DNA of 64,000 nt, from sequence record MK373786.1, one strand, 5' to 3'. The position numbers and the translations under genes are program-made. The stretch is from Escherichia phage vB_EcoM_R5505. A model generated the notes under the pieces. That model was not told the origin of the DNA. It searched no databases and saw only the letters and a program-made list of their open reading frames with translations. Positions 5,474-10,142 of the stretch are shown piece after piece. Numbering within the stretch: the first letter of the stretch is position 1; each line of letters begins with the position of its first letter.

Positions 5474-5549
5474 TGGTCGAGGCAGTAGGGATCGAACCTA
5501 CGACCTAGGACTTAGAAGGTCCTTGCTCTTCCTTCTGAGCTATGCCCCG
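5474..5549 (-). tRNA. tRNA-Arg (anticodon UCU)
   Basis: Manual cloverleaf: acceptor CGGGGCA/TGCCTCG, D-stem GCTC/GAGC, anticodon stem AGGAC/GTCCT with loop CTTCTAA, T-arm GTAGG-TTCGATC-CCTAC, encoded CCA. Confidence 0.85.
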
Positions 5550-5553
5550 TAAT

Positions 5554-5629
5554 TGGGGTGACCGATGGGAGTCGAACCCATGACTACGAGAATCACAATC
5601 TCGAGTTCTACCAACTGAACTACGGCCAC
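5554..5629 (-). tRNA. tRNA-His (anticodon GUG)
   Basis: Cloverleaf: acceptor GTGGCCG/CGGTCAC, D-stem GTTC/GAAC, anticodon stem CGAGA/TCTCG loop TTGTGAT, T-arm ATGGG-TTCGACT-CCCAT, discriminator C, CCA encoded; no encoded G-1. Confidence 0.75.
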
Positions 5630-5743
5630 ATTAATACCTACTCCAACAATCAAGATGTCTTCACACGAAATTAAGAGAAGAGTGATCAGTTCAACCCCTA
5701 TAATCGCGTCAAGTAGATATTAATGTGACAGTTGTCACAAATT

Positions 5744-5818
5744 TGGCGGACGTGATAGGATTCGAACCTATAACCAATCGCTTAACAGGCGATCGCTCTG
5801 CCATTGAGCTACACATCC
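5744..5818 (-). tRNA. tRNA-Asn (anticodon GUU)
   Basis: Cloverleaf: acceptor GGATGTG/CACGTCC, D-stem GCTC/GAGC, anticodon stem ATCGC/GCGAT loop CTGTTAA, T-arm ATAGG-TTCGAAT-CCTAT, CCA encoded. Confidence 0.75.
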
Positions 5819-5822
5819 AAAT

Positions 5823-5909
5823 TGGTGGGGAGTGGTGGAGTCGAACCACCCGAGTCGCAATGACAATGAATTTACAGTCCACACCGCTACCTCTACGGGA
5901 TAACTCCCC
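5823..5909 (-). tRNA. tRNA-Tyr (anticodon GUA), long variable arm
   Basis: Perfect acceptor GGGGAGT/ACTCCCC, T-arm GGTGG-TTCGACT-CCACC, anticodon loop CTGTAAA, ~15-nt variable arm; D-arm pairing imperfect. Confidence 0.6.
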
Positions 5910-5918
5910 AAATTAATT

Positions 5919-5993
5919 TGGTGGCCCTGGGTGGAATTGAACCACCATCTGGCGATTATGAGTCGCTTGCTTGAACCTTCCAGCTACAGGGCC
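5919..5993 (-). tRNA. tRNA with CAU anticodon (Ile2 lysidine type as in T4, or Met)
   Basis: Acceptor GGCCCTG/CAGGGCC, D-stem GCTG/AAGC, anticodon loop CTCATAA, T-arm GGTGG-TTCAATT-CCACC, CCA encoded. Confidence 0.7.
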
Positions 5994-5994
5994 T

Positions 5995-6070
5995 TGGTGC
6001 TGATTGACGGAATCGAACCGCCGACCTTCTCATTACAAGTGAGTTGCTCTACCTACTGAGCTAAATCAGC
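5995..6070 (-). tRNA. tRNA-Thr (anticodon UGU)
   Basis: Acceptor GCTGATT/AATCAGC, D-stem GCTC/GAGC, anticodon loop CTTGTAA, T-arm GGCGG-TTCGATT-CCGTC, CCA encoded. Confidence 0.85.
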
Positions 6071-6075
6071 AAAAC

Positions 6076-6165
6076 TGGCGGAGGCGATAGGATTTGAACC
6101 TATGAGTCGCCGGAGCGACTGCCGGTTTTCAAGACCGGTGCATTAAACCACTCTGCCACGCCTCC
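6076..6165 (-). tRNA. tRNA-Ser (anticodon UGA), long variable arm
   Basis: Acceptor GGAGGCG/CGCCTCC, anticodon stem ACCGG/CCGGT loop CTTGAAA, long variable stem-loop, T-arm ATAGG-TTCAAAT-CCTAT, CCA encoded. Confidence 0.85.
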
Positions 6166-6167
6166 AG

Positions 6168-6241
6168 TCTCCATACAAGGATTTGAACCTTGGACCTCCT
6201 GATCCCAAATCAGGCGCTCTACCAAACTGAGCTACACGGAG
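6168..6241 (-). tRNA. tRNA-Pro (anticodon UGG), CCA not encoded; 2-nt spacer to tRNA-Ser
   Basis: Acceptor CTCCGTG/TATGGAG, D-stem GCTC/GAGC, anticodon stem CCTGA/TCAGG loop TTTGGGA, T-arm CAAGG-TTCAAAT-CCTTG; Pro-Ser dimeric arrangement as in T4. Confidence 0.85.
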
Positions 6242-6251
6242 TAAATTAAAT

Positions 6252-6325
<74 letters not shown>

Positions 6326-6330
6326 AAATT

Positions 6331-6417
6331 TGGTGCGAGAAGTGGGACTCGAACCCACAAGGAAATCATTCCGCAGCATTTTAAGTGCTGTGCCTTTACC
6401 AATTTGACCATTCTCGC
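6331..6417 (-). tRNA. tRNA-Leu (anticodon UAA), long variable arm
   Basis: Acceptor GCGAGAA/TTCTCGC, anticodon stem CAGCA/TGCTG loop CTTAAAA, long variable arm, T-arm GTGGG-TTCGAGT-CCCAC, CCA encoded. Confidence 0.85.
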
Positions 6418-6418
6418 G

Positions 6419-6490
6419 CTGGGAATAAAGGACTCGAACCTTTGCATCTAGCAGTCAAAGTGCTATGCCTTACCAACTTGGCTAATTCCC
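6419..6490 (-). tRNA. tRNA-Gln (anticodon UUG), CCA not encoded; 1-nt spacer to tRNA-Leu
   Basis: Acceptor TGGGAAT/ATTCCCA, D-stem GCC/GGC, anticodon stem TAGCA/TGCTA loop CTTTGAC, T-arm AAAGG-TTCGAGT-CCTTT; Gln-Leu dimeric arrangement as in T4. Confidence 0.85.
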
Positions 6491-6577
6491 AATTATTAAC
6501 AAAGGCTCTCAAACAAGAACCCTTGATGATAGAGGGTATTAATCAGTGCGGTATGAGTTAATAATAACAAATAATTC

Positions 6578-7796: not shown

Positions 7797-7982
7797 TTAT
7801 TCACCTTTAGAAATTTTATCCATAACAATAGCAATTAAACCAATTAAAAATGCTACTACAAGTGAAAACACATTTTCTGCTGTAGTCAATAATCCACATA
7901 TAAATCCAACAAACATTGAAAAACTAAAAGCGGAAGCAGAAATTGCAATAGCAACATTTCGAATTAATTCACAACGTTTCAT
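7797..7982 (-). CDS. small hydrophobic membrane protein (two predicted TM helices), first gene of operon
   Basis: 61-aa ORF, ATG start with SD GGAG (rc of 7991-7994); sequence ...AIAISASAFSFSMFVGFICGLL...LVVAFLIGLIAIVM... Confidence 0.55.
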   Translation of the reverse strand: MKRCELIRNVAIAISASAFSFSMFVGFICGLLTTAENVFSLVVAFLIGLIAIVMDKISKGE

Positions 7983-8000
7983 TTTATTCTCCTCAGTAGT

Positions 8001-8040
8001 AGATAGGGTAATAGTATCACTACCCTATCTAAAAGTAAAC
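8001..8040 (-). promoter_or_regulatory. early promoter cassette with -10 embedded in a 10-bp inverted repeat
   Basis: Minus strand: GTTTAC-N18-TACTAT; inverted repeat AGATAGGGTA/TACCCTATCT (8001-8010, 8021-8030) brackets the -10; shares 22-mer GATAGGGTAATAGTATCACTAC with 8302-8323. Confidence 0.5.
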
Positions 8041-8274
8041 TTATTTTTTACGAAAAATTGATTTATATTTATCAGCCCATTTCTCGATGACTTTTTCTGG
8101 TCCATAGATAACAAAATAATCACCAAACTCTTCACCACCGAGTTGACCGAAATTATCTAATGCATCACGAAGAACTCCATGAGGCATTTCGCCCATTTTA
8201 TCTTTCTTACCAATGTAAATAAACTCAACTTTTACATCAGCAGCTTCAGCAATAAATTCTTGATACGTTTTCAT
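8041..8274 (-). CDS. internal-protein-like small protein with canonical capsid targeting sequence
   Basis: ORF track start 8292 is GTG; ATG at 8274 with SD GGAGAATAAAATG gives 77 aa beginning MKTYQEFIAEA (matches T4 IPIII/IPII targeting motif, I-x-E cleavage site). Confidence 0.75.
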   Translation of the reverse strand: MKTYQEFIAEAADVKVEFIYIGKKDKMGEMPHGVLRDALDNFGQLGGEEFGDYFVIYGPEKVIEKWADKYKSIFRKK

Positions 8275-8300
8275 TTTATTCTCCAATTTCACATTTGTTT

Positions 8301-8354
8301 TGATAGGGTAATAGTATCACTACTAAAACCCCGTGTAAACAACTTTGTGAAATT
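8301..8354 (-). promoter_or_regulatory. early promoter cassette upstream of the internal-protein-like gene
   Basis: Minus strand: AATTTCACAAAGTTGTTTAC-N18-TACTAT; 20-mer GTAAACAACTTTGTGAAATT repeated at 8702-8721. Confidence 0.5.
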
Positions 8355-8359
8355 GTTTA

Positions 8360-8647
8360 TTACAAAAGATTTTTAGCAATAATCTTGAGATGTGCTGCAG
8401 AAATGTGTTTAGCTTTAAACAACGCAGTTTCTTCGGCAGGAGAGATAACGATTGTAGCACCATCCTTTTTAGCAGACCACCCATCACCTAGGTAAACAGT
8501 ACCTTTGATTTCTTCGCCATCAACCAGACTAATCATTGGTTTACCTTCTCGTCCTTTATTTGCTTTAATAACTTCAGAAGTAAGAGTAGCTTCGGTAATG
8601 GTAGAAACCGGGGTAGTTGTAGAAGTAAATTCTTTAAATGTTTTCAT
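8360..8647 (-). CDS. ipI: internal protein I (IPI), injected anti-restriction protein
   Basis: 95-aa ORF MKTFKEFTSTTTPVSTITEATLTSEVIKANKGREGKPMISLVDGEEIKG... recognised as T4 IPI; adjacent to 57B as in T4. Confidence 0.9.
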   Translation of the reverse strand: MKTFKEFTSTTTPVSTITEATLTSEVIKANKGREGKPMISLVDGEEIKGTVYLGDGWSAKKDGATIVISPAEETALFKAKHISAAHLKIIAKNLL

Positions 8648-8668
8648 TTTATTTTCCTAATTAATTTT

Positions 8669-8719
8669 GATGAGATAATAGTATCACTACCTCATCAGTA
8701 TGTAAACAACTTTGTGAAA

Positions 8720-8721
<2 letters not shown>
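8669..8721 (-). promoter_or_regulatory. early promoter for ipI
   Basis: Minus strand: ATTTCACAAAGTTGTTTACA-N17-TACTAT ~25 nt upstream of ipI ATG; partial inverted repeat TGATGAG/CTCATCA around the -10. Confidence 0.5.
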
Positions 8722-9416
<695 letters not shown>

Positions 9417-9417
<1 letters not shown>

Positions 9418-10142
9418 TATAGTACCTTTAGTGTATTTTTAATTTTAGAAAAAAGTTCTTCAAGAGAACCATCGTTTGTAATTACTAAATCGCCATCACG
9501 AATTGGCAATCCAGCTTCTGTAATATGTGTATCATTGGATTTTTGACCAGGACGAACTACATGAATTACTGTAGCACCCATCGCCCTAGCCGCATCCATT
9601 TCATGATCTTGACGGGTATCAGGAACGATATAATAATCATAACCTGAGTTAAATTTATCAAGATAATCTAAAGCAAATAATTTTACCCAGTACATGCGGT
9701 CGAAGTTATTAACAATCAAATCCGTACCTAGGGCTTGCATCAGACGACGGACTGACCATTGATCTTCAATATTATTTATAACGTCAGTAATTTTGTTAAA
9801 TGCTACGAAATTAACTGATTCTTTTCCTTCGTCATCAAAAACAAACACACCTTTAATTGGGCTTTTACCATTAAGATAGCAAAATGCTTGTTCCATAATC
9901 GTGATTACTTCTAATTTAGTCAGATTTAAATTAGTCTCACGATCATAGTCAATTCCTTCAAACTCTTTACGAGTTAAGCAAGGATAGTCAGTGTTTGCTG
10001 CAAATACTCCCCATGCATAAGCCAATGCATCCTTAATAGGACCAGCAAGTTGGTATTTAACTGCAGAATAATTGCTCATGATAAAATCAGCAGTAGTATC
10101 TTTTCCACTACGCTTTACACCGCTTAAAAAGATTAGTTTCAT
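9417..10142 (-). CDS. 1: deoxynucleoside monophosphate kinase gp1
   Basis: ORF track extends to 10181; ATG at 10142 gives 241 aa MKLIFLSGVKRSGKDTTADF... with P-loop; matches T4 gp1. Confidence 0.9.

Follow-up and report, generated by a model that had tools for sequence, protein, structure and literature searches.

A 77-aa protein encoded between ipI and trna.4 in Escherichia phage vB_EcoM_R5505 is, judged by its sequence, a member of the already catalogued T-even Ip6 family and not a new protein. It is best explained as an internal-protein precursor that is probably packaged into the phage head, cut after Glu10 to 67 residues, injected with the phage DNA and used to block the type IV restriction enzyme McrBC. 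The analysis covered a 64,000-nt stretch of the genome (MK373786.1), which we call the window. The original prediction, made from the letters and open reading frames of the window, had presented the gene as a further internal-protein gene of the ipI locus that carries a canonical targeting sequence, a description supported by the match to the protein family PHROG 8111 and by the locus alignments. It had also implied novelty, and had listed, among the outcomes that would speak against it, that the protein is identical to an ipI-locus protein characterised before; the comparison of the ipI locus across T-even phages led to the catalogued Ip6, and such an identity is largely what was found.

The ip6 gene and its locus

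Table 1. Features of the ip6 region, with positions in the window.
Feature	Position	Strand	Evidence or remark
trna.4 homolog, 61 aa, downstream border of the IP locus	7797..7982	-	PHROG 1692; T4 trna.4 synteny
Cassette after the ip6 stop codon, before trna.4	7983..8040	-	GTTTAC 8035-8040; hairpin ~8000-8031; fold z -3.9
ip6-type internal protein gene	8041..8274	-	77 codons + TAA stop at 8041-8043; PHROG 8111 match
Predicted mature 67-aa protein AADVKV...FRKK	8044..8244	-	computed 7.7 kDa, pI 6.8
Allele-specific segment, codons 46-70	8065..8139	-	differs from the T6/Bas37 allele
Capsid targeting sequence MKTYQEFIAE, codons 1-10	8245..8274	-	ends in I-A-E motif for the gp21 prohead protease
Cassette before ip6	8275..8359	-	-35 TTTACA, 17-nt spacer, TG-extended -10 TACTAT at 8339..8311; inner hairpin ~8305-8332
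Shine-Dalgarno GGAG	8281..8284	-	6 nt before the ip6 ATG; read from sequence; kept in the locus alignment
ipI (IPI, inhibitor of GmrS/GmrD type IV restriction)	8360..8647	-	Pfam PF11634 IPI_T4 E 7e-54; PHROG 4363; aligns with T4 ipI
Cassette before ipI	8648..8719	-	promoter scan, repeat families, cassette alignment; fold z -2.9
57B / Acb1 (anti-CBASS), upstream border of the IP locus	8720..9175	-	Pfam PF23474 E 5e-60; T4 57B synteny

The listing of open reading frames gives an 83-aa ORF with a GTG start (8041..8292, minus strand), within which an ATG at 8274-8272 opens a 77-aa product, MKTYQEFIAEAADVKVEFIYIGKKDKMGEMPHGVLRDALDNFGQLGGEEFGDYFVIYGPEKVIEKWADKYKSIFRKK, that begins MKTYQEFIAEAADVKV and ends SIFRKK. 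The GTG overlaps the ribosome-binding region of ip6. The shorter reading had already been preferred for the nearness of its ATG to a Shine-Dalgarno sequence, and it is borne out by the spacing of that element and by the RefSeq record of the nearest relative, vB_EcoM_KAW1E185 (KMC14_gp269 / YP_010071347), where the same ATG is the start. With 12 Lys+Arg against 12 Asp+Glu, the mature protein predicted for the allele in the window would be near neutral (pI 6.8), compared with the basic values of 9.0-9.7 for T4 IPI, IPII, and IPIII. An AlphaFold2 model (mean pLDDT 80.5) showed a small beta-alpha-beta-beta-alpha-beta domain, and on this model we propose a ferredoxin-like fold for the mature protein. 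A fold search with the model returned generic matches that gave no functional clue, and IPI was not among them.

On the minus strand the genes run in the order 57B/Acb1, ipI, ip6, trna.4, trna.3, and trna.2. The gene had been placed immediately upstream of ipI; by the direction of transcription it lies downstream, between ipI and trna.4. Its slot, 57B-trna.4, is one of two polymorphic internal-protein (IP) loci, the other being denV-e. T4 carries 57B, ipI, and trna.4 with nothing between the latter two, and T2 has ip7 and ip5 in the same slot and no ip6. Over the 2.7 kb around ip6, the window is 99.9% identical to KAW1E185 (Tequatrovirus kaw) and 99.7% identical to AdolfPortmann; over 25 kb the best records reach 97-98% identity, none of them higher than about 98%.

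The surroundings of the gene gave three further observations. Three counter-defence genes adjoin in 7983-9175: 57B/Acb1 (anti-CBASS), ipI (anti-GmrS/GmrD), and ip6 (putatively anti-McrBC, by orthology). In TadeuszReichstein (Bas43), the place of the 151-aa 57B/Acb1 of other phages is taken by two short ORFs (207 and 180 nt; L008 2154-2609), which suggests that the anti-CBASS gene of Bas43 is disrupted or replaced. The tRNA cluster of the window, eleven contiguous genes at 5474-6491 that include a tRNA-Pro at 6167-6241, differs from that of KAW1E185, where tRNA-Ser and tRNA-Gly are separated by a 651-bp homing-endonuclease gene and tRNA-Pro is missing at this place.

As an arrangement, ip6 is a self-contained cassette, made up of a promoter/stem-loop block and the gene, between ipI and trna.4. 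Repeat analysis (D1/D2) found the cassette core in three copies, at 8002-8040, 8302-8340, and 8669-8707, and in all three intergenic blocks the stem-loop spans the -10 element. The block before ip6 has a folding energy of -28.5 kcal/mol (z -5.2); the one before trna.4 is identical to the corresponding block of phage Bas37. That the gene would have its own early promoter cassette was thus confirmed by the promoter scan and by the three-copy repeat, one copy of which precedes ip6. When the window was aligned with T4, JK1, and KMB40, only the ipI module was present in T4, only ip6 in JK1, and both in the window and KMB40, and the joints between modules sat inside the conserved promoter block ATTTCACAAAGTTGTTTACA...GTGATACTATTACCCTATC. 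Elements of this kind have been described at the two IP loci as PeSL-like, with T4 early promoters and AT-rich stems (Arbiol et al. 2010, PMC2839356, crediting Repoila 1994). The same authors regard the T-even elements as analogs, not homologs, of PeSLs and took them to drive the shuffling of internal-protein genes, of which more than 30 variants are cited (PMC2839356; cf. PMC4122927).

The late-promoter core TATAAATA was found directly upstream of neither ip6 nor ipI; the nearest copy on the minus strand, at 9773-9780, lies inside gene 1. Over the whole window this core occurs 24 times against 9.6 expected.

Family membership and the capsid targeting sequence

Residues 1-77 of the protein matched positions 1-77 of the PHROG 8111 profile ('internal virion protein') with an E value of 1.8e-50, and tblastn recovered the Ip6 body from 245 phage records, all with at least 80% coverage and 230 of them at 75-100% identity. 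The body of the protein had been described as unique, a view that does not survive these 245 records and the full-length profile match. The label is 'Ip6' in JK1 and 'ip6: internal virion protein' in VR20 and VR26; other records use 'internal head/core protein' or 'hypothetical protein'. The exact 77-aa sequence has been deposited (NCBI, UniRef) for KAW1E185 and teqhad, and AdolfPortmann (Bas44) encodes the same protein. Repoila et al. reportedly named the IP genes in 1994. That the annotation 'Ip6' denotes their original ip6 rests on the annotations and on the presence of the gene in T6.

The T6 copy (YP_010067284.1; NC_054907, 68011-68244) belongs to the same family, has the same length and locus, and is 79% identical to the Ip6 of the window; it is of the allele shared by T6 and Bas37 and has an ip5-like gene beside it. 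No report on the function of this T6 copy came to light. The Ip6 of VR7 and VR20 (UniProt E5FII6, 'Ip6 putative internal head protein') is 84% identical, resembles the window allele in residues 46-59 and has a predicted structure that superposes on that of the window protein with a TM-score of 0.93. VR7 and VR20 are Gaprivervirus phages, and their IP locus holds more genes with a targeting sequence than that of the window.

Beyond these relatives the searches returned little. Pfam, NCBIfam, and PDB sequence searches with Ip6 gave no match, and the Pfam family PF11634 (IPI_T4) was absent from Ip6, whereas the neighbouring ipI scored 180 bits. An exhaustive phmmer search with the mature part, run over 1.84 billion representatives, returned the Ip6 family and one diverged 63-aa relative only; as far as sequence likeness tells, the family is narrow. 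A third phmmer match (P0039) was rejected as spurious, being a low-complexity repeat protein.

Some members of the family, or relatives of it, are of interest in themselves. Gaprivervirus phages have five tandem ORFs with a targeting sequence at this locus (DK-13, L006 580-2034), one of which is a 46-50% identical Ip6 relative, and in ECML-359 this ORF (L005 1501-1704) was left unannotated. Metagenome-derived copies of 98 aa (P0006, P0007, P0014, and P0016) extend 21 residues past ...FRKK and so read into the promoter cassette that follows (...ISLLLDRVVILLPYLLLRRIK), a sign that the stop codon may have been lost, either in reality or through an assembly or gene-calling artefact.

The beginning of the protein, MKTYQEFIAEA, had been recognised as the capsid targeting motif of T4 IPII and IPIII, and rightly so: residues 1-10 are those of both T4 proteins with no mismatch, and Ala follows in all three. 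A six-frame scan of the whole 64-kb window with a loose targeting-sequence pattern returned two ORFs, ip6 and ipI. Both fall in the IP locus, and a chance match of ip6 to the targeting sequence is excluded. The first ten residues of IPIII are enough to package foreign proteins; targeting depends on residues 4 and 7, processing on residues 8 and 10, and the prohead protease gp21 cuts after L/I-X-E (PMC9026906; for the targeting and processing of T4 internal proteins see also the review PMC3012670). Across the Ip6 family, F7, I8, and E10 do not vary, position 4 is occupied by Y, F, or H, and the targeting and processing residues are kept even in diverged members, including the Gaprivervirus relatives of about 46% identity. 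I8-A9-E10 followed by Ala fits the gp21 rule, and by inspection Ip6 holds no second L/I-X-E. The predicted cut, I8-A9-E10/A11, would leave 67 residues, one more than the processed body of about 66 aa first proposed.

Orthology to bas37_0260 and a probable role against McrBC

A function can be suggested from an ortholog. According to a HIDEN-SEQ preprint of November 2025 (bioRxiv 10.1101/2025.11.20.689424), phage Bas37 relies on its gene bas37_0260 to evade type IV restriction by McrBC: its disruption by transposons caused a strong defect on K-12 BW25113 and none on a strain without McrA, McrBC, and Mrr, and a clean knockout was specifically McrBC-sensitive. The preprint places bas37_0260 'at the same locus as' T4 ipI and finds that only an N-terminal signal is common to it and IPI-III (10.1101/2025.11.20.689424). 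Bas37 is Escherichia phage KarlGJung (MZ501089), as established by means of locus tags and taxids, and bas37_0260 (QXV82231.1) is the 77-aa ORF adjoining trna.4; the locus tags given in the preprint to rIIA, cef, and modA are those of the GenBank numbering. The two proteins align without a gap at 62 of 77 identical residues (81%) and share the targeting sequence and the slot, with an ip5-like gene as neighbour in Bas37 instead of ipI. By this identity and synteny, the Ip6 of the window is orthologous to bas37_0260. The conjecture that the second injected protein is an inhibitor of another host defence agrees with the published genetics of this 81%-identical, syntenic gene against McrBC, as given in the preprint.

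The differences between the two proteins are not spread evenly. Set against Bas37, the window shows a DNA identity of 95.6% over codons 1-45, which falls to 62.7% over codons 46-70 and reaches 100% over codons 71-77 (Fisher p 1.4e-9). Of the 15 amino-acid changes, 13 lie in residues 46-70, where they take up 13 of 25 positions. The database holds two discrete Ip6 alleles, with a block replacement of about 75 nt between them (compare 8065-8139 of the window with L012:3554-3787 and L016:12-245), and one intermediate form (P0008). The type found in the window reads GQLGGEEFGDYFVIYGPEK..WADKY, with the variable segment GGEEFGDYFVIYGPEK..ADKY; the T6/Bas37 type reads GQLAAEDYGDKIVVTGPAA..WAAEN, with the variable segment AAEDYGDKIVVTGPAA..AAEN. 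The window allele is the less common one, occurs also in KAW1E185, AdolfPortmann, TadeuszReichstein, and JK1, and is close to the Ip6 of VR7. The anti-McrBC protein of the preprint is of the T6/Bas37 type.

This matters for the target, because internal proteins are strictly target-specific and the protein of the preprint is of the other allele, so that the target of the window allele may differ. Ip1, Ip2, and Ip3 are each directed against a single type IV enzyme of the GmrSD type, which they inhibit with strict specificity and no cross-protection between GmrSD variants (PMC12373910). The window allele might then inhibit a different enzyme (another McrBC variant, a member of the GmrSD family, or another type IV enzyme), with the family and the mode of delivery unchanged, on the ground that its beta2-beta3-alpha2 segment has been replaced. 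The concentration of changes in this segment and the discreteness of the two alleles speak for such a shift; against it, both alleles conserve the C-terminal tail and the N-terminal half, in which the loop KDKMGEMP is invariant, and several substitutions in the core are conservative (F/Y, I/V) and could be compensated drift. On balance we regard a different target as unlikely, if well short of negligible. The same low expectation applies to the wider reading of the two alleles as specificity variants against different type IV enzymes, with residues 46-70 swapped as a block. If that reading were true, a comparison of the two Ip6 alleles would be a natural way to map the recognition of a nuclease by an injected protein of 67 residues.

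The reading that we prefer, with McrBC as the target, involves the following steps. The 77-aa precursor would enter the prohead scaffolding core by means of its 10-residue targeting sequence, and gp21 would cleave it after Glu10 to a roughly neutral protein that would be kept in the head and would enter the host with the phage DNA. In the new host it would block a modification-dependent (type IV) restriction enzyme, presumably by direct inhibition, before phage gene expression. The likeliest target is McrBC, which attacks hydroxymethylcytosine (hmC) left unglucosylated, and the window allele would share this target. With alpha-GT alone about 80% of hmC is glucosylated and about 20% is not, which is near the threshold of protection from McrBC and McrA (PMC13216743). 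KAW1E185 and Bas37 both carry alpha-gt and beta-glucosyl-HMC-alpha-gt, the T2/T6 type, and KAW1E185 is without the beta-gt of T4 (L013 22621-23463, 35101-36303). A need for Ip6 is plausibly tied to incomplete glucosylation of hmC, an argument drawn from the glucosyltransferases of relatives. As single cases, KAW1E185 and Bas37 have both ip6 and a glucosyltransferase of the T2/T6 type, and T4 has neither; T2 has no ip6, yet carries that glucosyltransferase (the latter according to PMC13216743), so any association is not strict.

Several points count against this explanation. The pI of the mature protein is near neutral, and the McrBC genetics come from one preprint and from the other allele. 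Late production for packaging is hard to account for, because no late promoter lies directly upstream of ip6. KAW1E185 also encodes Arn, an annotated inhibitor of McrBC restriction (L014 7130-7408). A literature search on T4-like phages found neither virion proteomics nor an N-terminal sequence for any Ip6.

The promoter evidence could also be read to mean that Ip6 acts mainly as an early cytoplasmic inhibitor in the manner of Arn, with little or no packaging and with a targeting sequence left over from the shuffling of cassettes: the sole recognisable promoter of ip6 is of the early type, no late motif adjoins it, and the Bas37 genetics do not separate injected from newly made protein. T4 ipI, however, has the same promoter layout and its product is packaged, ten such residues suffice to carry foreign proteins into the head (PMC9026906), and the retention of targeting and processing residues down to relatives of about 46% identity argues for selection on the signal; we therefore hold this alternative to be quite improbable. 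Less probable still is that Ip6 is a structural or DNA-condensing component of the head with no part in defence. In its favour, the internal proteins of T4 are abundant and in contact with DNA, and head assembly is slower in IPIII mutants (PMC9026906, PMC3012670). Such a role fits poorly with the balance of charges in the mature protein, which is not basic, with a gene that is present or absent among close relatives and missing from T4 and T2, and with an ortholog whose phenotype depends on the genotype of the host. Packaging, injection, and inhibition of McrBC by an Ip6-family protein remains the reading that we favour.

Ip6 compared with known counter-defence proteins and cassettes

Injected internal proteins are the first counter-defence of a T-even phage, and each one so far tested disables one specific type IV enzyme. 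The identification as Ip6 would explain why two such genes stand side by side in the window, IPI against GmrS/GmrD and Ip6 probably against McrBC, next to 57B/Acb1. Recognising Ip6 helps in predicting the host range of therapeutic T4-like phages. No new principle is involved, as earlier work had already described the family, the architecture of shuffled cassettes, and what the ortholog does.

[quoted passage not shown] It differs from Ip6 in having a 19-residue propeptide, in being basic, and in its target, and the two show no similarity past the N-terminal signal (30% identity in a forced alignment). Arn (anti-restriction nuclease) of T4, an inhibitor of McrBC, presumably has the same target as Ip6 and occurs in KAW1E185 as well; it is unrelated to Ip6 in sequence and locus, and it has no targeting sequence. 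Arn is made after infection and is not injected. IPII and IPIII of T4 share with Ip6 the sequence MKTYQEFIAE followed by Ala and inhibit specific GmrSD variants (PMC12373910), but their genes lie at the other IP locus, close to gene e, and they have basic bodies unrelated to that of Ip6 (26-31% identity in forced alignments). The blocks around ip6, finally, can be compared with PeSL cassettes, which combine a sigma-70-like early promoter with a stem-loop, usually polyG/polyC, lie between stop and start codons, and flank variable ORFs; the ip6 cassettes share the promoter, the stem-loop, and the flanking layout, but their stems are AT-rich rather than polyG/polyC.
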